Source: a virus. From it: 64,000 nucleotides of DNA. Positions 9,301-38,399 of this stretch are shown piece after piece. Below the pieces are notes generated by a model that saw only the letters and a list, made by a program, of their open reading frames with translations, ran no database searches and had not been told where the DNA came from. A program made the position numbers and the translations under genes. Numbering within the stretch: position 1 is the stretch's first letter; every line of letters starts with the position of its first letter. Location: the IMG/VR virus record IMGVR_UViG_3300027499_000006, positions 10,950-74,949 of that record; one strand, 5' to 3'.

Positions 9301-12300
9301 ACTGCATTGAAAAGGGAATCGGTCTTGACCAAGAGGCAGAAGGCTCCGTAGAGGCTGGGGAGCTCGGCTATTGCAACGCTCTTGACTTTAAGTGCGCCTC
9401 TGAGCGAACCTGTAACGCTTGGGCATCTGGTGGCCCAGTTACTGCTGGTGGAGACTACAAAGTTGGAGACGACGTAAACGTTGATGTCGAAGAGTTCTTC
9501 GCAAGGCCGATGTACGAACTCCCTGAGGGACTAAAAGAGTATGTCGAAGAGGTAGAGCAAAGTGACGAGTATGAAATTATGCTTGACGACCTTGTTCCTA
9601 CTCAACGTACCGTAAACATGGCTCGCGTTAAAGACGCTATGGACTCCGACAAGCCAATCCAAGTTTGGGTTAATGAAGACGGTGAGCCTGAAATTGTGAA
9701 TGGCCACCACCGCTCTGTGGCAAAAAGAATGAGTGGCGAAGACACTATTATGGCTAAAGTTTACGACTTTAGGGGGTTTGTTGCTACTGCTGGCTCAAAG
9801 CCTGCTCCCAAGAAAGAGCGAATTAAGGGCTCAAAGCGAAACAAGTCAGGGTCTGGAAAAACTGGTGCTGGAGTAACTTTCACTCAGAAGATTGAAGATG
9901 CTCTGGCAACCAAAGCTACCAAGCACAATGAAACTGCCAAGCAGGGTAGAAAAACCAACATCAGAACTTTGAAGGCTGTCTACCGTAGAGGGGCAGGAGC
10001 ATTTTCAACTTCGCACCGCCCCGACCAGAACCGCAACAGCTGGGCCATGGCTCGAGTAAACGCATTCTTGCACCTACTTAAGACTGGTACCCCCAAGAAC
10101 AGTAAGTACATTACTGACAATGACCTTCTTCCCGCTAGCCACCCAAAATCCACAAAAAGCGCGTCAAGTGCTTTAGTTTCTGCTGGCTATAGCGGTCAGG
10201 ATGGGGCATCCTTCAGTATTCCTCTTGTCATTCCTGAAGAAGTCGAGTCTGGAGATGGCAGAAAGTTTAATAAGGGTGCTATTGAAATAAGGGAGCTTCC
10301 ACTTCCACTCTTGTGGCAGATTGAAACTGGCAATGGCCACGATGGTTCTGTTGTTGTTGGTCGGATTGACCGCATGGAACAAACCGAAGAAGGTATTGGA
10401 AACGCCTACGGTGTCTTTGATTCTGGGGTGTACGGGAGTGAAGCTGAGCGTCTAGTTCGCGAGGGCTTCCTCCGTGGTGTTTCTGCTGATATGGACAAGT
10501 TTGAAGCAACAGAAGAAGTTGTCACTGAAGCAAGTGACGACGATGATAACAAGAAAATCAAAAAAGAAAAAATTATTATTAAGTCGGCTCGTGTAATGGC
10601 CGTTACAATAGTACCTAAGCCCGCTTTTCAAGAGTGCAAAATTTTCCTTGAAGAACCCAAGGACCAACCCCAGGAGGATAACATGATTCCCGACGGAATC
10701 TATATTGAAGACATTGAGCCCGCTGAGGCAGAGGCAGTTGTTGCTTCTGGCCTTATTGCTGGGTCCATCCCCGTTGCACCACCCAAGTCGTGGTTTACTA
10801 ACCCACAGCTTAAGCAACCGACACCCCTTACCGTCACCGACGAGGGCCGTGTCTATGGACACATTGCAGCGTGGGATGTTGACCACATTGGTATGGTTTC
10901 AGGCACTCGCCCCCCACGTAGCCGTAGTAACTATTCCTACTTTCACACAGGGGTCCTCCGCACTGAAGAGGGTGTTGATGTTCCTGTTGGTCAGATTACT
11001 CTTGCTGGTGGACACGCTGACATTCGCGCAAGCGCATCCGAGGCCGTCAAGCACTACGACGACACCGCAAGCGCAGCAATTGATGTTCACGCTGGTGAGG
11101 ACGCTTACGGTATTTGGGTAGCTGGTTCGCTCCGCCCAGGTGTCACCCCCGAGCAGGTTCGTGCCCTCCGCGCATCTGCTCCGTCTGGTGACTGGCGTCC
11201 AATTCGTGGCAACCTCGAGCTTGTTGCAGTGTGTCAGGTTAATGTTCCTGGGTTCCCCATTGCTCGCGCAATGGTTGCCTCTGGACAGGTTACAGCGCTG
11301 ATTGCGGCTGGTGCCTCGGTTCTGGCTAAGATGCGACACAACCCCATGCAGGAGCTCAATGAGCGTCTATCTAAGCTCGAGCAGAAGGAGAAGGCTGGCC
11401 TTATCGCAGCAGCACAGGAAGCTCGCGCTAAGTTCCAAGCTCTTCGCCCATCACAGGAAGAGCCTGTTGTTGCAGATGCCTTCTATCAGGAAGTTCAGCC
11501 AAGTCTTGTCCCGATGCTAGAGAAGACTCTGGCTGATGTCGTATCCTTTACGTTTATCGCTCAGGGGTACCACTGGAACGTCAAGGGCAAGAACTTCCCT
11601 CAGTATCACGAGTTTTTCGGAGAAATTTACGAAGAGGTTCAGGGCTCGATTGACCCCCTCGCTGAGAACATTCTTAAGCTCGGTTACGACGCTCCCATGG
11701 GCATCCTGGCTTACGCCGAGATGAGTGAGCTTTCTGCTTCTGGCACAAAGGACTCTTCCTGTGAAGCAATGGCTTATGACCTGTACTTTGCTAACAACAA
11801 AGTCTTGGACGACTATAAAGAAGCTTTCGCAACAGCAGATTCCATGAACGAACAGGGCGTTGCTGATTTCCTTGCGGGACGCATTGACATGCACCAGAAA
11901 TGGGCGTGGCAGTTGAAGGCTTCTTCAATGCCCGAGAAGATGCGCAAAGAGAGCTACGAGGACGCTCTCGAGCCGATGGACATGATGCGTGAATACGTTG
12001 ATGAGGTCCCCGAGGTTGCCATGATTTCTAGTGGAGCCGAGCACAACTTTGAAGCTTTTAGCGCCCTTACTGAACTGGCTAAGTTCACTAAGGAGGAGCG
12101 CGAAGAGCTTGCCAAAGAGGGCAAGGCTATGCCAGACGGTTCCTACCCCATCAGGAATGAAGAAGACCTGAAGAATGCAGTGTCAACTTATGGACTTGGT
12201 AAGTCTGCAAAGAAGGACATTAAAGCTCACATTATTAAGCGTGCCAAGGAGCTCAACAAAGAAGACCTCATCCCTGAGAATTGGATGGGCAAGAAGGACT

Positions 12301-16238: not shown

Positions 16239-17294
16239 ATGGCTACTCAAGATTATGCCGCAAGCATTCAAGGTGTGTCCATCCGTGTCACGCGCCTGAA
16301 TGCCGACGGGACACTCGCTAATGGCGCTGGGGATAGCTACACTACCTCGGCTTTTATGCGCATGTCTTTCACCCCAGAGTACGAAGAAGGCGATGAAATT
16401 ACAGAGAAGTCGGCCAACGGCTCCATCTGTGTTTCTTACAAAGCCCCTGACACACTCAAGCGCATCACGATGGAACTTGCCATCTGTGAGCCCGACCCCG
16501 AGCTGACAAACCTCATTTCTGGTGGTCTCTTGCTTCGCAAGAACCTCGGAACTTTTGGTACACCCAACCGCAAGAGCATTGGTTGGTCGTCACCAAACGT
16601 TGGAGATGACCCCTCTGGTAACGGTGTTGCCATTGAATGTTGGTCCTTCGCGGTTAAGGACGGACGTCGTGCTTCGACTCTTCCGTACTTCCACTGGGTC
16701 TTCCCCTACGCCAAGCTTCGCCAGAGTGGTGACCGAGTTATCGAAAACGGTATGCTCGCAAACACCTTCGAAGGCTATGGATTGGGCAACGTTAGTTTCG
16801 GCTCCGGCCTTGACGAGCGCTGGGAGTTCCCAACTGCCACGGAGCGTCCATACTCATACGCTCGCGCTTCCTATGCACCGACTGGACGTAATGGATTCTA
16901 CACTTGGCATGGTGAACTGGACGCTACCATCACAGACCTAGCTGTCGCATCTAACGTTGCTACCGTTACCACATCCGCAGCACACACTTTTGCTGTTGGT
17001 GACGAGGTCATAATTGATTCTCTTGAGGATTCGGGAAATGTCGTTTACGATGGCACCTACACAATCACTGTTGTACCATCAACTACCACCTTCAGGTTCG
17101 CGTTTACGGGTGACAACCTAACTGAAGAGGCAGCCACGGGAACAGCTACTGTTCTCGCCGGTAGTCGTGAGGTGACCACCCTGCCAGACGTCAACACTGA
17201 GTCTGACGGAGATAACGTACCTGGTGCTGTTGACTTCAACGCCGACGAGCCGATTGACTTTGTCTTGAACTCGTCTGAGGACCCCGCGTCCTAA
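16239..17294 (+). CDS. Major tail (tube) protein with C-terminal HxFxxGD beta-domain
   Basis: IRVTRLNADG...EYEEGDEITEK...C...LKRITMELAICEPDPE...YFHWVFP; SD AAGGAG; C-terminal NVATVTT..HTFAVGD...YDGTYTIT...TTFRF domain. Confidence 0.85.
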   Translation: MATQDYAASIQGVSIRVTRLNADGTLANGAGDSYTTSAFMRMSFTPEYEEGDEITEKSANGSICVSYKAPDTLKRITMELAICEPDPELTNLISGGLLLRKNLGTFGTPNRKSIGWSSPNVGDDPSGNGVAIECWSFAVKDGRRASTLPYFHWVFPYAKLRQSGDRVIENGMLANTFEGYGLGNVSFGSGLDERWEFPTATERPYSYARASYAPTGRNGFYTWHGELDATITDLAVASNVATVTTSAAHTFAVGDEVIIDSLEDSGNVVYDGTYTITVVPSTTTFRFAFTGDNLTEEAATGTATVLAGSREVTTLPDVNTESDGDNVPGAVDFNADEPIDFVLNSSEDPAS

Positions 17295-20333: not shown

Positions 20334-23300
20334 ATGGCAGTCGTTGGCGAAGCCCACATCATTGTTAGAGCTATTACTACTTCCGTTGAGAAGGATATTC
20401 GTAAAGGGTTTAGCGGTATATCTGGTGCTGGTGGTGAGGCTGGAGACAATTTAGGTAAGTCTTTTAGAAAAGCTCTCGATAAGCAGATGAGTGCTAGCGG
20501 ACCAGGGAAGCTTGCAGACGCACTTAGAGGACTTGTCCCTGAGGCTGAAAGAGTATATCTACAGTTTAGGCGACTTACTCGTATTGGCTATGCTGCCCAA
20601 GCTGGGTTTGGTGCCATTGTCGGTTCAATTGGCTCCATTGTAGGCGGGCTAGGTGCTTTAATTGGTGTTGCTGGGGCTGCCGCATCCTCGCTTATTGCGG
20701 TGGCCAGCGCTGGTGCAAGTATTGGAACAGCATTTGGGGTTGCTAAATTTGCTTTTGGCGGTATTGGAGAAGCAATGCAAGAAGCCAGGGGTGGTGGTGG
20801 TGGAGGTGGACAGGACAACACTGCAGCTATAGAGGCTGCGCAACGTAAGTTGGCAGAAGTTATTGCAAAAAATAGCGACAAACTAGTTGACGCAAACAAC
20901 AAGGTGACAGTAGCGCAGGAAAAACTTAATCGAGCTCTAAGGGAGGGTAGGGAGGAACTTCAGCAAATATCCTTCTCTGCCGAGCAAGCTGCTCTCGATG
21001 AGAAAGAGGCAGCTATTGAACTGGAGAAAGCCAGAGAGACACTCCAAGGTGTGCAAGACCTACCACCAAATTCTAGGGCTCGAAGAGAGGCGCTTCTTGC
21101 ATATGAGCAAGCCGAACTAAATCTCAGATTGGCTCAAGACGCTGCCTCGGACTTGGCTACTGAAGAGCAGAGACTATCTCGATTAGGTGTCGAAGGCACG
21201 GAAGATGTTATTGATGCTAGGCGGGAGCTAGCCGAAGCAGAAGAAGACAGAATCAGAGTTATCAGAGACAATGCTTTTGACTTAGCAGATGCTGAAGCTG
21301 ACCTTGAGGAAGCCCTACGAAAAACTTCTGCAGCACTTGGAGCAGCTACCCGAGCCTATGACAAGTTGACTGCCAGTCAAAAAGTTTTTGTTGGATTCCT
21401 GAAACAGATTAAACCCCTCTTTGCTGGGCTACGAGAAGATGTTGCTGGGGGGTTCCTTCCAGTTCTTCAGACACAGATACAGAGGTTTATTGACGCTGGG
21501 CTCGTAGGAGTTCTTAGTGCGGGGTTTACTGAAATTGGTGTTGCCCTTGGCGAGACTAGTGAGCTATTTACAAGCGCGTTCTTGAATTCTCGGGGGCTAG
21601 ATAATCTTTCTAGCTTCTTCACTACTACAGCTCGAGTAGTTCCTTCTATGGGTAGGGCACTAGGTCTTAGTTTTGGGAGCTTCCTAGAAGTACTAAAGGC
21701 TGCCGAGCCAATCACTATAAGATTTGTAGAGTTTATTGAGGGCAAGGCAGAGACTCTCCAAAATTTTCTAAGTGTTAAAGGCGCAAGTGGAGAACTTGAA
21801 GCATTCTTTACTAGAGCTGGGGATTTGGGTGCCCGCTTTGGAGACGTATTTGGGAACATATTTGGGTTCTTAGGCGATATTATTATGGCCAACTTTGGAC
21901 CTGGTAGTGGCGGAGACATGGTCCTATCGTGGCTTCAAAAAGTCACACAGGGATTTAATGATATTGACCCAACCTTCTTGGAGAGCTACTTTAAGGGTGC
22001 ATCAGAAAATGCAATTGCTCTCCTAGACTCATTTGGAATTTTGTTCGAGCTCCTTATTAGAGCTGGTGATGACCCTGGGGTCAAGGGATTTTATGACAAT
22101 CTAAACCAAGGTGCTTCAGCACTAGCAATAATTATTAGGGAGTCTGTGGCAGCTGCTCCATCTTTAGGAAGATTTTTGGCCCTAGCGACCGAAATTATTG
22201 CTATATTTGCCGACTCTGGGTCTGTCAAGGCATTTTTTGACACACTAAATATAGGTCTTGGGGCACTTCTCAACTTCCTAGAAGCGATAAAACCGGCTAT
22301 TGACTTTGTTGGACCAATTTTTGCTACCATTACCGCTATAACCTTGATGGGCTCTCTTCTACTTACAGTAGGTAAAGTCTTTGCTGGATTCGGCATTACT
22401 GCGCTTACTAGTCTGGCAAGAATACCCGCAACTGCCACTCTTGGTATTAACGGCTTAACAGGTTTATCTGGTGCTTCTACGAGGGCAGCTGCTGCTCTTG
22501 CAACTGTTGGCCCCGCTGCCACGGTAACCGCAGCGCAGACGACAGCTGCTGCCAAACTTACAGCTGCTGGATGGACTGTTGTGCCTCCCGCCATTGCAAA
22601 ATCAACAGCTGCTCTTGCAACTGTTGGCCCCGCTGCCACGGTAACCGCAGCGCAGACGACAGCTGCTGCCAAACTTACAGCTGCTGGATGGACTGTTGTG
22701 CCTCCCGCCGCGGGGGCAGCAGCTACAGCATCAACAGTTGCTGGAACAGCGATAAAGGCCGCTTTTGGTCCGATTGGTATAGCGATTGGATTAGTAACTG
22801 CAGCTTTTGCTTTACTTGCGTACCAATCTGGGAAAACTCAGGAGGCAATTGATAATGCCTCTGTAGCGACAACAAACGCCATGAAGTCTGGGGCTGACGG
22901 AACAGAAATCTTTAATAGCGCTCTCGCAGCCGTTGGGGATACTGCCACTAGGGATGTTCTTGCTGGGACCAAGAATCTTGCCGGTAGCATAGATGGTCTA
23001 ATCTCCAGTCAGGAGAACGCTACCACAGTAATGACACGCTATGGTAGGGCTACTATAGGCCCGAACAAAATCTCAGAGGGATATAAAAATACCCTAGAAG
23101 CTGTCGGAAATTCTTTGGGAAACCTTGCTACAACTAATCTTCCCGAAGCTCAACGCAGTTTTAGTAGTCTGGTAAAAGCACAGAAAATCTCCAACGACGG
23201 TGCTTTGGAAATGCTTGCCACCAATGACGGTATGAGGCAGTCTTTTATTGACCAAGCAAACCAAATGGGAATTAATATTCTTGGCATCAACGGAATGGTT

Positions 23301-24437
23301 GATGAGCAACTTCTCCTCAATTTTGCTCTAGGTCAGGGAGAAGTTGCTGTTAGGGCAGCGGCGGATGCGGAGCGCTCAAGGCTGGAGGGCATCCGTAGAG
23401 TAAACCAAGGTCTCTCTGAGGCGGCTCAAAGAGCAGTTGGATTTGGTGACGCCACTTCTATTGCGCTAAAGAACGGCGAAGTAAATTTTGAGCAGACAGT
23501 CAAAAATCTTAATGACAAAGCATTTGCATCTACTCAGTTCTTTAATAATCTACTTACACTCCAGCAAAAGGGCATAAGCGAATCGGCTATTAATTTCTTG
23601 AAAACAGCAGGAGACCAAGGTGTGCTTCTTGCTCAAGATTTGGTGGGTAGGACCTCAGCTGAGCTTTTGAAATTTAATGCTCCATTCAAAACATTGGAAT
23701 TGCAGTCTGGCCCAACTTTTACTCGAATTAGTGACAGCATAACTAAAGCTTTGAACGGTGGGAAAATTGGTACTGAAACTGCAGCCAGACTGCAGGCTCA
23801 ACTTTCCAGTGCCACAACCGCAGCAGATATGCAACGAATCGGAGGGCAACTTGCCCGAGAGATAGAGAAGTCTGTAAGTGCAAAAGACCCTTGGAAGAGA
23901 ACATCCGCGGCAGTCACTGCGGGCGTCGATGGTGCAGCCACGGGTAAGGGCATCGCTGATGCAGTTACGGGAGCACTTGGAAGTGTAAAGACTATGAATG
24001 ACGCCAAAAATGCTGGAAATGGGATAAGAAATTCACTACAGAGTAGCTTTAGTACGCCAATTAGTGTGACTATACAGGTTAAAACCAAATACCTAAAGGC
24101 TACTGGAGGAATTGTTGAAGCAGCAGTTGGAGGTCTTATTCGAGGCCCTGGGACTGGGACCAGTGACAGCATTCCAGCAATGCTTTCTGATGGTGAGTAC
24201 GTCATTAATGCCAAAGCAACTTCTATGTTTAGACCAATCCTTGACGCAATCAACTATGGAAAGTCAATTCCTGCGTCTCCCCCAACAGGGGCTGTCAATA
24301 CTAAACAAGGCTCCACTTCTTCCCCTCAAAATATCAACATCACCGTAAACCCATCCGCTGGTATGAACGAACGAGAGCTCGCTAAACTGGTATCTAGAGA
24401 GATTGCATACTCAATGCGTAAGGGGGCCATGTCGTGA
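20334..24437 (+). CDS. Tape measure protein
   Basis: 1367 aa, Ala/Gly-rich with coiled coils and hydrophobic segments; N-terminal AVVGEAHIIVRA; C-terminal GGLIRGPGTGTSDSIPAMLSDGEYVINA. Confidence 0.92.
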   Translation: MAVVGEAHIIVRAITTSVEKDIRKGFSGISGAGGEAGDNLGKSFRKALDKQMSASGPGKLADALRGLVPEAERVYLQFRRLTRIGYAAQAGFGAIVGSIGSIVGGLGALIGVAGAAASSLIAVASAGASIGTAFGVAKFAFGGIGEAMQEARGGGGGGGQDNTAAIEAAQRKLAEVIAKNSDKLVDANNKVTVAQEKLNRALREGREELQQISFSAEQAALDEKEAAIELEKARETLQGVQDLPPNSRARREALLAYEQAELNLRLAQDAASDLATEEQRLSRLGVEGTEDVIDARRELAEAEEDRIRVIRDNAFDLADAEADLEEALRKTSAALGAATRAYDKLTASQKVFVGFLKQIKPLFAGLREDVAGGFLPVLQTQIQRFIDAGLVGVLSAGFTEIGVALGETSELFTSAFLNSRGLDNLSSFFTTTARVVPSMGRALGLSFGSFLEVLKAAEPITIRFVEFIEGKAETLQNFLSVKGASGELEAFFTRAGDLGARFGDVFGNIFGFLGDIIMANFGPGSGGDMVLSWLQKVTQGFNDIDPTFLESYFKGASENAIALLDSFGILFELLIRAGDDPGVKGFYDNLNQGASALAIIIRESVAAAPSLGRFLALATEIIAIFADSGSVKAFFDTLNIGLGALLNFLEAIKPAIDFVGPIFATITAITLMGSLLLTVGKVFAGFGITALTSLARIPATATLGINGLTGLSGASTRAAAALATVGPAATVTAAQTTAAAKLTAAGWTVVPPAIAKSTAALATVGPAATVTAAQTTAAAKLTAAGWTVVPPAAGAAATASTVAGTAIKAAFGPIGIAIGLVTAAFALLAYQSGKTQEAIDNASVATTNAMKSGADGTEIFNSALAAVGDTATRDVLAGTKNLAGSIDGLISSQENATTVMTRYGRATIGPNKISEGYKNTLEAVGNSLGNLATTNLPEAQRSFSSLVKAQKISNDGALEMLATNDGMRQSFIDQANQMGINILGINGMVDEQLLLNFALGQGEVAVRAAADAERSRLEGIRRVNQGLSEAAQRAVGFGDATSIALKNGEVNFEQTVKNLNDKAFASTQFFNNLLTLQQKGISESAINFLKTAGDQGVLLAQDLVGRTSAELLKFNAPFKTLELQSGPTFTRISDSITKALNGGKIGTETAARLQAQLSSATTAADMQRIGGQLAREIEKSVSAKDPWKRTSAAVTAGVDGAATGKGIADAVTGALGSVKTMNDAKNAGNGIRNSLQSSFSTPISVTIQVKTKYLKATGGIVEAAVGGLIRGPGTGTSDSIPAMLSDGEYVINAKATSMFRPILDAINYGKSIPASPPTGAVNTKQGSTSSPQNINITVNPSAGMNERELAKLVSREIAYSMRKGAMS
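22491..22709 (+). repeat. Identical 102-nt direct repeat (period 117 nt = 39 aa) in the tape measure gene
   Basis: 22491-22592 equals 22608-22709 (AALATVGPAATVTAAQTTAAAKLTAAGWTVVPPA x2). Confidence 0.9.
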
Positions 24438-27256
24438 CTAGAGTAAATTTAGCTTTCAACCCCTCCTTCCGTCTGGGTACTAGTGGCTGGGAACCTATTG
24501 GTGACGCAACAATTGCAGAGTCAACTGCATATGGTTTCTTTGGGACGCGCTCTCTAGCAGTCACTCGCTCTTCAACTGTTGGTACGGGTGTAAGAAACTC
24601 CACTCCTTATCGAGTGCAAGCAGGGTTGCCCTATAGCGCGTCTATCTATGTCTTTATCCCAGTTATTGTCCCAGCCATTGAGTCTGCTCCTCTCCAGCTC
24701 ACCATTACATGGCTTGATATAACTGGAACAGAAGTCGGACAAAACTCTTCCGTAGTTGTGACAAAAACTCCCAGCGCCTCGTGGAGCAGACTGACACTTT
24801 CCGTTGCGCAGGCCCCCGTTGGCGCTTATTCTGCCTATGTCTCTCTGGCGCAGGTTATCTCTGGCTCCTCAGGGAAGCTTTTCTACATAGACGCAGTTTT
24901 GTTTGAGCAGTCTGACTTTGTTGGTGAGTATGTTGACAATCTCACTCAAACTGAAGAAAACACTTATGTTAATAACTCACTGACTCAAGTTCCAATTCCA
25001 AAAATTACTGGTATGGAGCTCAATGGTGACATTAGCTTGGGAAGTCTTATCCTCAATACTATTGACGAGGACGGTGTTGTGTGGGTCTGCACCAACATCA
25101 CGGGATGGTGGGAACAGCCAAACGCTGAAATGCCCGATATCACTAGAGGAACAGAAGACGGCTCTTATCAAGTAAATGGTCGCTATACGGCAAGATTTAT
25201 CACTTTAGAAGGAGTGTTCCTCCCCCAAAACAAAACTCAAATTGCTACGGCACGTGACAAGCTGACGGCAGCTAGCAATCTTGTCCGTCGCGGGGAGTGG
25301 CTACGTGCTAACGAGGGGCCAACTCGGGCAGCCTTTGTTCGTTTGACTGGTCAGCCCAGAATGGAAACAGTTAATCCTCGTGGGCGCACTGAATTTTCTA
25401 TAGGTCTTGTTGCTCCAGACCCAATTAAATATCAGTGGAATGATAACGACTCAGAAAATGGTCTGTTTCAAGCCACGTCGCCCGCTGGGTCTCCCTTGGT
25501 AATATACAACAGTGGGACAGCAGAAGTTAAATGCGTTTTGGCAGTACGTGGGCCTCTTGGGGCCGAATCAACTATTGAGAATGCAAGCAATGGAAACATT
25601 TTAACACTCTCTGAGCCTCTACGTGGACGTGGGCCAATAGGAAAAATAACTCAGATTCAAAGATTTCAGGGTGTTGCCACAGCCACCACAGAAAAAGCTC
25701 ACAGCCTAGTTGTGGGAGATAAAATTGAGGTCTTCAACGCCCCCACTCAATTTAACTCAAGTCAAGGAACACCATTTTTTACTGTTTTGAGTTCTACAAC
25801 CGAAGAGCCGTATCAATTTAGCTATAGCCTACCTGGAGGAGACATCTCTGAAGTTAATGTGTCAGGTACAGTAGCTCTGGTAAGCGAAGATGTCATAGAA
25901 ATAGACACTTATGACCAGTCGGTTAGTTTTAATGACGACACCGTCGGGGAGAGATTCAGACTATCCCCTTTGGTTGACTGGATTGCTCTCATCCCAGGAA
26001 ACAACACTCTAGTTGTTACTGAAGACCATGACCCATTTAAGGTTGAATCTAAGTCTTACGCTCGTAAGGTTCTCGGTGTTGCTAGTGGTGCTAACACTGG
26101 TGCTACCGTACCCGTGGACGACGCCACCCTATTTGAAGTTGGTATGGTTGTTGACACTCAGACTGGCGCTACTGTTGACAACACTGGACTGGTTGTTGCG
26201 TCTAGGAGCCTCACTGTTGGTGCCAACACGGTTACCTTTACCACTACCCCATCCACACCCACTGCTGATGGTGACACCCTTCTTCATGTTGGTAATGGTG
26301 TCGCCACTCTTACTTTGGATAGGGCCCACTTTATTAGGATTGATGGTGAGAAAACCATCGACGTTTTTCTGCCAGAAACAGCCGAGGTTGTGGCTAAAGA
26401 GATTGACGAGGAAGTTGCTACTCTGACGACCACTGCCCCCCACGGGTTTGCAGTCGGAGATATCATTGATGTCAAGCTGACCGTGTCTGTTGATATTGAC
26501 ACTAAAGAAGTAGATACTAACGTTGCAACACTTATTACCACTGAGAGCCACGGCATTGAAGTAGACGAAGAATTTGACGTTGATATGGCGACTGTGGCAT
26601 CAATAATTACCAAACAGAGTACAGGCAATGTAGTAACCTTGAGAACTTCTGCTGACCACAGGTTCTCGGATAATGACTCGGTGGAAGTAGATTTACCAAC
26701 AGAAGCTTCAATCTCCAAAAAACTTCTATTTGCCAATATTGCAACTCTAACTACTTCAGCCACGCACAACTTTTCAAACGGAGACACCATTGATGTCAAT
26801 CTCCCCGAGACTGCCACTATCAACCAAAAAACAATTCTCGGAGATACTGTAACTCTGCGGTCAACCTCTGCGCATGGATTCTCTTTGCAGGACAAAGTTA
26901 CAGTAGACTTTAATGAAACTGCTAATATTACAGATTTTTCTTTTGATGGAACTACTTCTTATTCTGTAACACTTACAACAGAAGACCCACATAATTTTTC
27001 AGTCGGTGATAGAATAGAAGTTGATATTACTGACGACAATGTAAATGTGCAATTCAACGGAACATGGATTGTCAATGCCATTCCTTCCTCTACTCAGATA
27101 AAGTACTTGTACTACGAAGACGACACCACCGTGACCTCCTTAGAACTCACTGGAACTGGAACTGTTACCAACCTCACCAACCAAGAGATAAATGGACTGG
27201 TCACAATTACATCTATTCCCAGTAGCACTACGTTCACATACGTTAAGGAGGTGTAG
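24434..27256 (+). CDS. Distal tail protein (Dit) with N-terminal CBM-like domain and nested HxFxxGD repeats; lacks the Dit C-terminus
   Basis: Follows the TMP (GTGA overlap); NLAFNPSF...DAVLFEQ CBM-like domain; Dit core DGVVWV..ITGWW...GRY.ARFITLEG...F.IGLVAPDPIKY. Confidence 0.8.
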   Translation: MTRVNLAFNPSFRLGTSGWEPIGDATIAESTAYGFFGTRSLAVTRSSTVGTGVRNSTPYRVQAGLPYSASIYVFIPVIVPAIESAPLQLTITWLDITGTEVGQNSSVVVTKTPSASWSRLTLSVAQAPVGAYSAYVSLAQVISGSSGKLFYIDAVLFEQSDFVGEYVDNLTQTEENTYVNNSLTQVPIPKITGMELNGDISLGSLILNTIDEDGVVWVCTNITGWWEQPNAEMPDITRGTEDGSYQVNGRYTARFITLEGVFLPQNKTQIATARDKLTAASNLVRRGEWLRANEGPTRAAFVRLTGQPRMETVNPRGRTEFSIGLVAPDPIKYQWNDNDSENGLFQATSPAGSPLVIYNSGTAEVKCVLAVRGPLGAESTIENASNGNILTLSEPLRGRGPIGKITQIQRFQGVATATTEKAHSLVVGDKIEVFNAPTQFNSSQGTPFFTVLSSTTEEPYQFSYSLPGGDISEVNVSGTVALVSEDVIEIDTYDQSVSFNDDTVGERFRLSPLVDWIALIPGNNTLVVTEDHDPFKVESKSYARKVLGVASGANTGATVPVDDATLFEVGMVVDTQTGATVDNTGLVVASRSLTVGANTVTFTTTPSTPTADGDTLLHVGNGVATLTLDRAHFIRIDGEKTIDVFLPETAEVVAKEIDEEVATLTTTAPHGFAVGDIIDVKLTVSVDIDTKEVDTNVATLITTESHGIEVDEEFDVDMATVASIITKQSTGNVVTLRTSADHRFSDNDSVEVDLPTEASISKKLLFANIATLTTSATHNFSNGDTIDVNLPETATINQKTILGDTVTLRSTSAHGFSLQDKVTVDFNETANITDFSFDGTTSYSVTLTTEDPHNFSVGDRIEVDITDDNVNVQFNGTWIVNAIPSSTQIKYLYYEDDTTVTSLELTGTGTVTNLTNQEINGLVTITSIPSSTTFTYVKEV

Positions 27257-27259
27257 CAG

Positions 27260-30200
27260 ATGACTACCCAAGTTGTTAAAAATGCACCAAATAGTCTTGT
27301 TCAGTCTGCGAACACTACTGTAACCACAACAGGCATTGTTTTCGCGTCCACTACTGCTTCTACTACAGTAGCTGGACGAGTCGCTGCAAATGGCAACTTC
27401 CCCATTCTCGTTACCCAAGTTGGAACTTTTGTTTCCGGTAGTGGTGGCACTAGAAACATAACCCTCACCTTAGGAACTTCCTCGGTAAACTTGCCGTCTG
27501 TTGCATCAAACGCGGCCGCCCAAGATACTGGGTTTCAAACACTAACCACAGCCCTATTAATTCCCGATACTAGAGCCACTACTAATAGGCCAAGTTTCTC
27601 TATATCGGTGTCTCCTACGGGCGCTGGGAACGAGTTTTTATTTGGAGCACTAACAACTGCCACAGCCACAACTAGCGCGGGTTCCCCCGGTACCAGCCCC
27701 ATCCAAGTTTCTACTGACCCTGTCACGACTATCACGGGTAAACTTCCCATTAAGTTTGGCTATGTTCAGGCACCAGCACAACCAGTTCTCACACTTACCT
27801 CGCCAACTACCTTAGGCTCCACATCGGGGAGAATTACAGCATCGTGGACTGCCCCCGACAACGGTGGAACAGCCATTACGGGCTATCGTCTTGTGTGGTC
27901 TACTAATTCTCTTCTAGGTAGTAATAATAATGAAGTAACTGTTAGTGGGTCAACGCTCACATACAATGTTGACGGCCTGATTCCTGGCACTAGGTACTAC
28001 TTCAAAGTTTTTGCAAAGAACGCAGTAACCGATACTGCTGGGACAACTGGTCCCTACCCAGATGCCCAAATTAAAAATATAGTTGCTGAGGGTACTCCAG
28101 TTAATGCCCCCACTCTTACCGCAGCCAACCCCAGTACAACTGTTCTGGGTCGGGTAGACCTCACTTGGACCGCGGCACCTGCAACTTTAAGTCCCATAAC
28201 TAGGTATAAAGTCTACGCAGACAACGTTCAAATTGCTGACGTGGCTAGCACAGTACTTTCTCATAGTGCTACTGGGTTAAACCAACGTCAAACTTACTCT
28301 TTTACGGTAAGAGCCCTAAATGCTTACGCTGTAGCTAACAGCACAACTGGTCCTAATTCAAATGCTCTGGAGAGACAATCTCCTGGAGTTCCTAGCGCCC
28401 CTCGAAATTTAAGTGGGGTTTCAGTGGAAAATTCAGTAGACCTATCTTGGGATGTGCCCGAAAATGTCGGAACAACTGGCGGTTCTATCACTCAATACGA
28501 GGTTCTCAAGTCCGGTTTTACCCCCATTACAGCCACTGGTGGTACGGTAACACAGGTTACTAGGGATGGCGTTGTGTGGAATGTGCACTCTTTCACTGGC
28601 AATGGGAGCTTTGTCGTTTCCAATGCTGGTTCTGACGGGGAAATCAGATACTTAACCGTTGGTGGTGGTGGTTCGGGTGGTAAGTCGGCAACCGTTTCTG
28701 GTGGTGGTGGTGCGGGTGGATTCGTCTCCAGCAATGCATTCCTAGACGCTACAACCTACACGGTCACGGTTGGTGCTGGTGGGGCAGCAAAAACTACAAT
28801 TGGTGTAGGAAATTCAGGTGGAAATTCCTCTATATCCACTATTGCCGAGTCTGTCGCCCTAGGTGGAGGTGGTGGTAGTGACGGAGTTTCTGCTGGTGCT
28901 GTAGGTGGCTCCGGTGGTGGTGGAGCGCCATCAACAACTGCTGTTCTTGCTGGCGGGCTTGGTACCGCTGGGCAGGGCAACAACGGTGGCTCTGGGTTCT
29001 TCAATGCAACAGTCGCTAACCGCTCTGGAGGTGGTGGTGGTGGTGCTGGGGCCTCGGGTAGTAACGGTGTATCAGCACAGGGTGGCAATGGAGGAGTAGG
29101 TCTTTCCAGCGATATTAGAACTGGGTCCGCAGTATTTTATGCTGGCGGTGGTGGTGGTGGTAAGGCCACTACCACTGGAGTAAATCCTACGGGAGGAACT
29201 GGAGGTGGCGGTGCTGGTGGGGAGACCACAACAGCTGGAACCGCAGGAACAGCAAACACAGGCGGTGGTGGTGGTGGTTCGGGTACGGGTAACGGTGGAG
29301 CAGGTGGCTCGGGTATTGTTGTAATTACCTACCCAACAGCAACTCCTGTACTGTCTAGGCAGGCTGGAGCTTTGCCAAGAACTTTTACCCACACTGGCAG
29401 AGTGATTGGTAGTACTTATAGCTATGTAGTCCGTGCTCGTAATGCTATTGGGGACACTAACAACACCACAAGCGCCAATTCAAACATAGTCTCCGTTCTT
29501 ATCTCAGTTAGTGGACCAGAGAACTTTACTGTGGAGGCTGCAACTGACGCAGCTGGTCGACTAGTTCTTTCGTGGAGTGAGCCAGCTACATCAACTGGAT
29601 ACAAAATTTTCCAAGTTATTGATGGAAATGATGTTTTGATTCAAGACCTCGGTCTCGTCACTGTCTTTAAGATTGATGAACTAACTGCTGGAACTACGTA
29701 CACGTACAAAATTAAGGCAACAAGCATTGCTCAGCCACAGGGGGGGTACTTCTCTGGTCCAGTAGATGCTTCGCCAAACGCGGGTAGTGTGCAAACAGTT
29801 CCAAGTGTTGCGGTGACTAACGACACTAACGAGCGCTTTTCGGGAACTTTTGCAACTATTAACGTCACCGCAACCACTCTTGAGTACGCTAATGAGAATC
29901 CCAGCTACCCAGAAAACACCGTTCCAGCAACATTTGGAACCATCAACAACTTGACCAACCAAAACCTAGAAGGCACATACACAATTGCTATCCCTACCTC
30001 TGACACAATAACCTTTTCCCGAGACGGGTCTGACATCCCTGCCAACACTTCTGTGGCCCAAGGAACCCTTACTAATGAGACTAATGTGCCTTTAGTAGGA
30101 ACTAAGACTGCCCTGGCTGGAACAACTGGCTCCTCAATTTTATATTCGGTGACTAGCCCAGATGTCACTGCCGAGAGTGCCATAGGAACTGTTACTGGTC

Positions 30201-30532
30201 TGACCAGTCGTGAATTTAACGAAACTGGGGCTGAAATTACTGCAGTCACAGAAACAACTTTTTCTTACGCTCTTGCCGGAGAGGATGACTTGGCCCCCTC
30301 AGTTGCTGCGGGAACTGTTAGCAACAAAACTAATGCTGAAATTTTTAATGGTGAAGACATTGAAGTAGATAATATTGTAGGCTACGACACAGTTTCGTAT
30401 AATGTAACAGGAGCCAGTGCGCTATTAAATAGTGCCCACTCCTCTACGGTAGACTATCCTTTAGACGCAGTGGAAAAGGTTGACAGCGAGGCTGAACTTA
30501 CAGTCAAGTATCGCTCTGGCTGGCTCGCCTAA
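27260..30532 (+). CDS. Minor tail protein: FN3 repeats, Gly-rich insert, C-halves of the nested repeat and Dit-type C-terminus
   Basis: FN3 motifs (ASWTAP...ITGYRLVW...LIPGTRYYFKVFAKN etc.); SD AAGGAGGTG; ends ELTVKYRSGWLA. Confidence 0.8.
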   Translation: MTTQVVKNAPNSLVQSANTTVTTTGIVFASTTASTTVAGRVAANGNFPILVTQVGTFVSGSGGTRNITLTLGTSSVNLPSVASNAAAQDTGFQTLTTALLIPDTRATTNRPSFSISVSPTGAGNEFLFGALTTATATTSAGSPGTSPIQVSTDPVTTITGKLPIKFGYVQAPAQPVLTLTSPTTLGSTSGRITASWTAPDNGGTAITGYRLVWSTNSLLGSNNNEVTVSGSTLTYNVDGLIPGTRYYFKVFAKNAVTDTAGTTGPYPDAQIKNIVAEGTPVNAPTLTAANPSTTVLGRVDLTWTAAPATLSPITRYKVYADNVQIADVASTVLSHSATGLNQRQTYSFTVRALNAYAVANSTTGPNSNALERQSPGVPSAPRNLSGVSVENSVDLSWDVPENVGTTGGSITQYEVLKSGFTPITATGGTVTQVTRDGVVWNVHSFTGNGSFVVSNAGSDGEIRYLTVGGGGSGGKSATVSGGGGAGGFVSSNAFLDATTYTVTVGAGGAAKTTIGVGNSGGNSSISTIAESVALGGGGGSDGVSAGAVGGSGGGGAPSTTAVLAGGLGTAGQGNNGGSGFFNATVANRSGGGGGGAGASGSNGVSAQGGNGGVGLSSDIRTGSAVFYAGGGGGGKATTTGVNPTGGTGGGGAGGETTTAGTAGTANTGGGGGGSGTGNGGAGGSGIVVITYPTATPVLSRQAGALPRTFTHTGRVIGSTYSYVVRARNAIGDTNNTTSANSNIVSVLISVSGPENFTVEAATDAAGRLVLSWSEPATSTGYKIFQVIDGNDVLIQDLGLVTVFKIDELTAGTTYTYKIKATSIAQPQGGYFSGPVDASPNAGSVQTVPSVAVTNDTNERFSGTFATINVTATTLEYANENPSYPENTVPATFGTINNLTNQNLEGTYTIAIPTSDTITFSRDGSDIPANTSVAQGTLTNETNVPLVGTKTALAGTTGSSILYSVTSPDVTAESAIGTVTGLTSREFNETGAEITAVTETTFSYALAGEDDLAPSVAAGTVSNKTNAEIFNGEDIEVDNIVGYDTVSYNVTGASALLNSAHSSTVDYPLDAVEKVDSEAELTVKYRSGWLA

Positions 30533-30555: not shown

Positions 30556-38399
<7,844 letters not shown>

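Follow-up and report, generated by a model that had tools for sequence, protein, structure and literature searches.

The distal tail protein (Dit) encoded in a 64,000-nucleotide stretch of viral DNA (IMG/VR record IMGVR_UViG_3300027499_000006, positions 10,950 to 74,949; hereafter the window) appears to be an open chain, whose missing parts are found at the end of the protein encoded by the next gene. Comparative genomics and structure prediction indicate that this split stalk is real, conserved and unusual. On computational evidence, we estimate at about 0.85 the probability that fold complementation joins the Dit and the next protein in an obligate heterodimer.

Half-domains in two consecutive genes

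Search with repeat profiles revealed that the Dit open reading frame (ORF), P0001, carries after the Dit core seven N-halves of a repeated domain, of the type VATLTTxxxHGFxxGDxIxV and with a spacing of 36 residues. These are followed by only two C-halves, of the type GTVTNxTNxxFNGTxxIxxxPxxTTFTY, and then by the stop. Five further C-type units are contained in the last 245 residues of the protein encoded by the next ORF, P0002, which ends ELTVKYRSGWLA; the segment bearing them is here termed the zipper, and P0002 the arm protein. The original prediction had listed these seven, two and five halves and the terminal sequence, and was right in every detail. The positions of all features are reported in Table 1.

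With profile hidden Markov models (HMMs) of the two repeats, all but one of the seven halves of each type are detected at an independent E-value of 2e-3 or lower; the two missed ones, DRAHFI (N) and LVGTKTA (C), are divergent, yet kept in relatives. When the whole window was scanned in six frames with both half profiles, matches were found in tail genes of the + strand only, namely those encoding the major tail protein, the Dit, the arm protein and a Tal-like protein. The intact unit that had been proposed for the major tail protein (phrog_792) was confirmed by the profile scan: it is located near the C-terminus, and in it the C-half comes straight after the N-half. This single FCCH-like unit agrees with the tube decoration of other siphophages (PMC13576161).

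Table 1. Position in the window of the two genes, of the elements of the split stalk and of neighbouring features
Feature	Position	Strand	Remarks
Open Dit (distal tail protein), P0001	24434..27256	+	940 aa; stops at TAG and lacks the canonical YRSGW strand
Stalk-closing arm protein, P0002	27260..30532	+	1090 aa; same reading frame as the Dit ORF
Gene junction, AAGGAGGTG TAG CAG ATG	27242..27262	+	Shine-Dalgarno sequence in the 3' end of the Dit gene, real stop, next start 3 nt on
Five unclosed N-halves, N1-N5, with 16-aa linkers	26318..26800	+	P0001 ~629-789; from repeat profiles
Nested tip, N6-N7-C7-C6	26834..27253	+	P0001 801-940; closed inside the Dit
Five C-halves, arranged as C5, C4, C3, C2, C1	29792..30400	+	P0002 ~845-1047; includes the preceding strand, probably finishing bead 6
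Canonical Dit C-terminal strand, ...SEAELTVKYRSGWLA, predicted to be supplied in trans	30485..30529	+	touches P0001 367-375 and 526-545 in the co-fold
CBM_4_9-like domain of the Dit	24434..24910	+	P0001 1-160; before the Dit ring domain
Extra ~75-aa domain of the Dit	26066..26290	+	P0001 ~545-620; between Dit core and N1
Major tail protein	16239..17294	+	phrog_792
Intact unit of the major tail protein	16956..17099	+
Tape-measure-sized ORF	20334..24437		1367 aa; overlaps the Dit start at 24434
Tal-like protein	30556..34257	+	phrog_1885 N-terminus
Stalk of the Tal-like protein	~31981..33410	+	N1-N6, then C6-C1

The structural bead is a barrel of about 85 residues, which in the model of the stalk tip also takes in the strand of the outgoing linker and, on the way back, the GTVTNxTN strand. 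According to this model the 'halves' are barrel cores, covering less than the full extent of a bead, and, because the bead includes the returning strand, the strand preceding C5 probably completes bead 6 too. The E1_FCCH family (PF16190) is matched with 17.0 bits by the Dit and 26.5 bits by the Tal-like protein, both under the cutoff of 29.5. At the level of fold, residues 25-118 of the tip model form one barrel, which superposes on the beta-barrel of the phi92 endosialidase (4hiz_A, 255-339) with a Z score of 9.5 and a root mean square deviation of 2.3 over 84 aa, and on the FCCH domain of UBA1 with corresponding values of 8.1 and 3.0 over 80 aa. Foldseek comparison of the tip model against the PDB gave no match at E <= 1e-3; the resemblance of the modelled bead to FCCH barrels is therefore at fold level only.

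Assignment of P0001 as Dit

Several lines of evidence identify P0001 as a Dit. In a Pfam scan it matches SPP1_Dit (PF22768; E 8.1e-6, 26.4 bits, cutoff 25); minor tail protein families of PHROG are also matched (phrog_5577, E 9.6e-19), and its core is about 40% identical to the 385-aa Dit of the Actinomycetia phage DSL-LC01. The gene lies directly downstream of the tape-measure-sized ORF, and tape measure protein is the annotation of the gene upstream of the Dit in relatives. Along the chain, a CBM4_9-like N-terminus is followed by the Dit ring domain, a SPP1_Dit-type C-domain, an extra domain of about 75 aa, N1-N7, C7 and C6. As in evolved Dits, modules are added within the peripheral C-domain: an intact barrel (P0001 414-470), the 75-aa domain and the stalk.

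Two features of the Dit vary among relatives. The N-terminal domain, which resembles the carbohydrate-binding module (CBM) family CBM_4_9 with 19.4 bits against a cutoff of 25.9, is shared with the Microbacterium phages named below and is lacking in the unsplit DSL-LC01 Dit. The 75-aa domain occurs in the window and in the related locus L014, and L013 and L004, both close relatives, lack it; a single small module has therefore been inserted or deleted recently.

The C-terminal strand of the Dit

The window Dit ends ...TTFTYVKEV, without a [YF][RK]SGW[LI][GA] strand; this motif closes the next ORF. An exhaustive HMMER search for Dit relatives returned 675 matches, and the best 150 cluster representatives were classified. 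Ninety of these close with a motif of the type [YFW][RK][SAP][GA]W, while about 36, here called open, end in a C-half, and it is the same ones that carry surplus N-halves. The closest unsplit relative, the Dit of DSL-LC01, can be aligned through the core and ends ...MRLFYRSGWLG. Judging from these sequences, the YRSGW-type ending is the canonical Dit terminus, a point that the original prediction had proposed to check in relatives. Open Dits are found in at least 35 clusters at 50% identity.

All homologues of the arm protein end in YRSGW, with the single exception of locus L017 (4501-7325), which is split in three. Here a zipper protein of 709 aa stops after the fifth C-half, with a TAATG overlap, and a third ORF of 231 aa, CBM-like, carries only the final strand, ending ...LTITYRSGWLG. 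The third ORF is homologous to a segment made up of CBM_4_9 plus strand, which in L006 is fused to the zipper protein.

Two sets of candidates were rejected. Long Dit representatives (1900-2760 aa), taken as possible fusions, have C-half ends and are open Dits with extra insertions; P0019 (L005:852-3800), taken as a possible arm-less closer starting at the zipper, is an artefact of a 5'-truncated contig. DUF5122 ('delta-60') beta-propeller repeats were observed in P0093, a closed single-chain Dit of 1687 aa, within the stalk insertion, and in the zipper protein P0019, together with CBMs, between C-halves and final strand. A variety of inserts seems to be tolerated at the site preceding the last strand.

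Nested order of the halves

At every locus read by eye five N-halves are left unclosed in the Dit and five C-halves are located in the next ORF, with stalks of seven beads, of eight beads, or with extra intact beads (Table 2). Bead 8 is an insertion, made up of linker, intact bead and return linker, which falls exactly between the orthologous N7 and C7 (alignments A5 and A6, the latter comprising 9 sequences without and 14 with bead 8). Because of this position, the alignments offer direct comparative evidence, at sequence level, that both halves of one bead remain partners across an inserted bead.

Table 2. Junction between the Dit gene and the next gene, and distribution of the halves (total = closed in the Dit + unclosed), in the window and related loci
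Locus	Identity to window	Junction	Halves
Window			7 = 2 + 5
L018, independent assembly	98%	TAG CAG ATG
L019 and L020, two assemblies	89%	TGA TA GTG
L013	80%	TAA AG ATG	7 = 2 + 5
Pumpernickel		TAA TGA, then more stops	7 = 2 + 5
L004, L010, L014			7 = 2 + 5
A3Wally		TAA + 20 nt, other frame	8 = 3 + 5
Cece		TAG GAA TGA CAC ATG	8 = 3 + 5
L012, L015, L016, L017			8 = 3 + 5
L006			extra intact beads, five still open

The Tal-like protein contains, in addition to earlier intact units, a stalk running from N1 to N6 and then from C6 to C1 in a single chain; it provides a natural control for the split stalk of the Dit. An out-and-back insertion also precedes the YRSGW strand of four closed Dits (P0067, P0093, P0095, P0111). 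In L014 (4501-8010) an intact barrel unit is located between C2 and C1 on the return strand of the zipper protein (P0016 ~1015-1070), so that the split part of the rod bears a bead at its side.

Structure predictions

The Dit piece 356-940 of P0001 was co-folded with residues 845-1090 of P0002 (alignments A3 and A4). The interaction prediction score from aligned errors (ipSAE) was 0.71, 0.70 and 0.71, versus 0.00 in the best of three controls; the co-fold attains the mark used for this score, as do 58 of the 80 solved complexes and 2 of the 110 mismatched pairs, counts which are approximate here, own alignments having been used. About 1000 confident contacts are predicted. The predicted local distance difference test (pLDDT) value of the zipper segment is 87 with the Dit versus 37 with an unrelated chain, and that of the Dit piece is 86 with the zipper segment versus 75 with an unrelated chain. 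On the Dit side the interface is made up of P0001 619-801 (N1-N5 with their linkers), of core strands 367-375 and 526-545 and of a small number of residues in bead 6; on the other side it takes in nearly all of P0002 845-1085. Sequence searches of the PDB gave no match with the Dit or the Tal-like protein, and only generic fn3 domains with the arm protein. Since no related solved structure was found by sequence, the co-fold result is unlikely to reproduce a structure already known to the predictor.

The co-fold places the last strand within the Dit core, at a distance along the chain of only about 29 residues from C1; by this geometry C1 would adjoin N1, and C5 adjoin N5. This reverse-order register is suggested by geometry, topology and the indels of alignments A5 and A6. 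For the closed tip (P0001 801-940), an AlphaFold2 model based on alignment A6 has a mean pLDDT of 93.9 and a predicted template modelling score of 0.83.

Proposed assembly and alternative explanations

The data may be accounted for as follows. An insertion would be placed just before the last beta-strand of the peripheral C-domain of the Dit, and would consist of a rod of seven FCCH-like beta-barrels, each set into a loop of its predecessor, so that the chain would go out through N1..N7 and back through C7..C1. The gene would have been cut on the return path, between C6 and C5, leaving the Dit with five half-barrels. The last ~245 residues of the second protein would zip along N5..N1 as C5..C1, after which ELTVKYRSGWLA would dock into the Dit C-domain; an arm of about 850 residues (unassigned domain, fn3, Gly-rich) would thereby be fixed at the joint between beads 5 and 6. 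That two polypeptides complete one out-and-back stalk and the last strand of the Dit had been put forward in the original prediction, and is supported by the conserved split with its real stop, by the canonical terminus at the end of the second ORF, by the constant number of five unclosed halves, by the position of bead 8, by the co-fold with its controls and the confident tip model, and by the single-chain stalks and the three-way split of L017.

A number of points weigh against this assembly. The evidence is computational, and the co-fold is a measure of model confidence, obtained with own alignments that are shallow and unpaired; its output does not include residue pairs, so that the reverse-order register is not directly seen. 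When the Dit piece is modelled alone by AlphaFold2 on an alignment of nine rows, the whole stalk remains under a pLDDT of 50; as this includes the complete beads 6-7, low confidence of the chain alone does not discriminate incompleteness. In the same model the Dit core reaches a pLDDT of about 88 without the trans strand, and the stronger claim that the core folds only by complementation is not supported as stated. Finally, an automated count of N- minus C-halves arrives at 5 for 22 of the 35 open representatives; for the other 13 it yields 4 or 6, divergent halves having probably been overlooked.

Some of these points would also suit a gene fission after which complementation between the halves was lost, the N-halves being structured on their own, for example between Dit subunits, and the C-halves folding apart or binding elsewhere. 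Pairing is not seen at residue level, the core can be modelled without the trans strand, and the N-half repeats of about 36 aa are regular enough for a repeat structure of their own. However, the five unclosed halves are constant while the number of inner beads varies, and their barrel-core motifs are retained down to ~35% identity; moreover, the co-fold buries essentially all of the C-half segment against N1-N5, and the segment is at pLDDT 37 without the Dit. We consider such a loss of complementation unlikely.

The alternative that amber readthrough or recoding of TAG yields one Dit of ~2032 aa, the two ORFs being one gene, finds support in the shared frame and in the TAG CAG that alone separates the two. 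The junction reads GTT AAG GAG GTG TAG CAG ATG, confirming the single frame, the TAG-CAG spacing and the strong Shine-Dalgarno sequence noted in the original prediction; the latter, 9 nt long (AAGGAGGTG), falls within the last codons of the Dit gene, and an ATG follows the stop. All of the 16 loci read are split, with TAG, TAA or TGA as stop, gaps of 2-24 nt, and the second gene in the same or in a different frame; TAA or TAG stops, the same range of gaps and either frame were seen when 13 loci were compared together. The nearest cultured relatives, the ~190-kb Microbacterium phages A3Wally, Cece and Pumpernickel, share ~35% identity, and all annotate two genes here; multiple in-frame stops also occur among relatives. 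TAG CAG ATG is kept in contigs of three lake-water runs from two other studies, and a fourth run contains a natural TAG->TAA variant (27256 G>A), reading TAA CAC ATG, as well as the TGA form. TAG terminates 13 of the 37 large ORFs of the window, and no tRNA gene, hence no suppressor, was found in the window or in its 82.6-kb contig. The hallmarks of readthrough or recoding (an in-frame layout that is conserved, one leaky stop, and either a suppressor tRNA or use of the codon other than as a stop) were not found. The readthrough product of 2032 aa envisaged in the original prediction is thus rejected: it is contradicted for the family as a whole and highly improbable for the window. A stop created by faulty sequencing or assembly, or by recent pseudogenisation, has the shared frame and nothing else in its favour and is refuted, since the junction is repeated in an independent assembly (L018, 98%) and in the contigs of the three lake-water runs, and the split is maintained down to ~35% identity. 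The stop codon is genuine.

Positions 26700-27800 of the window, or close variants, occur in lake-water, freshwater and subsurface metagenomes of 13 studies; the phage belongs to a lineage with a wide freshwater distribution. Relatives of the window phage measure 100-190 kb, versus 82.6 kb for the window contig. A search of the phage collection for DNA near-identical to the window gave no match.

The arm protein

P0002 starts with about 180 aa without assigned family, followed by fn3 repeats, a Gly_rich_2 region (448-691), further fn3 and the zipper. A protein atlas search with the first 185 residues gave only sub-threshold leads, lectin-like or DUF4082, with a score of 0.87. This N-terminal domain differs among relatives and, as far as sequence can tell, would fit an exchangeable adhesion module; the role of the arm may be adhesion to the host surface. 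If the Dit is hexameric, six arms per baseplate would be expected, one per Dit subunit. Tight spacing and the internal Shine-Dalgarno sequence suggest that the translation of the two genes is coupled.

The zipper might also be a general plug-in docking device, an extension of the model to which we give slightly less than an even chance. A fixed socket of five beads in the Dit would accept interchangeable arms that end in a plug of five halves plus the Dit strand, and the last strand alone would dock the separate CBM protein of L017.

Comparison with known systems

In evolved Dits of siphophages, the closest family, loops of the peripheral galectin-like domain hold inserted CBMs, all within a single chain (PMC7291167). 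Like them, the window Dit follows the tape measure gene, matches SPP1_Dit and has a ring domain and a peripheral C-domain with inserted modules. What sets it apart is an insertion ahead of the last strand, where seven or eight nested barrels form a rod in place of a CBM, and the division of the protein between two genes, another polypeptide contributing the last strand and five half-domains. The modules inserted in its stalk are FCCH-like beads, and in the relatives L006 and L017 CBM_4_9 is found before the final strand. As judged from sequence comparison and modelling, open Dits appear to be a form of evolved Dit that is assembled through fold complementation.

In phage p2 the arm-and-hand extension of the Dit anchors the receptor-binding protein, and in TP901-1 BppU is docked (PMC7291167). 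There too the peripheral domain of the Dit anchors host-binding arms, but folded domains dock surface to surface, whereas here the joint would be inside domains. FCCH-like beta-barrel decorations are carried by siphophage tail tube proteins (PMC13576161); these and the endosialidase barrel (4hiz) share the fold of the bead, but are single contiguous domains, neither nested nor split. Full-text searching of the literature turned up no account of strand complementation involving Dit, of a Dit completed in trans, or of nested barrel rods or nested domain insertion in phage tails, and no such joint is described in a preprint on mycobacteriophage baseplates (PMC13252515). The unsplit Tal-like protein and the four closed Dits show the same barrel unit in the same out-and-back order, and the closed Dits the same insertion site as the open Dit, before the YRSGW strand; they are, however, single chains without completion in trans.

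In principle, the closest parallel is the donor-strand complementation of chaperone-usher pili, where an incomplete beta fold is completed by a strand of another polypeptide, giving a very stable non-covalent joint. The likeness to the Dit/arm pair would be a functional analogy; homology, Ig-like pilin fold, chaperone and usher are all lacking, and in the tail proteins scanned Pfam gave no pilin, chaperone or usher match. In the pair, moreover, an antiparallel zipper would deliver two single strands along with five half-domains, all at once, and a heterodimer would result, not a polymer.

Implications

Phage baseplate appendages are thought to attach through the docking of folded domains. If the proposed assembly is true, the joint would instead run through the interior of five successive domains and of one core strand, making up a natural multi-domain split-protein system. 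The stalk would represent an extreme case of nested domain insertion, with seven to eight levels, which may serve as a model for folding order, and a clear case of gene fission at a fixed structural position; it is also a possible scaffold for self-assembling protein rods. As regards annotation, the 'minor tail protein' following the Dit would be partly Dit. The presence in the family of the cultured Microbacterium phages A3Wally, Cece and Pumpernickel makes direct testing possible. Should the plug-in extension hold as well, fold complementation would be a distinct route by which phages build and swap baseplate appendages, and perhaps an assembly checkpoint.

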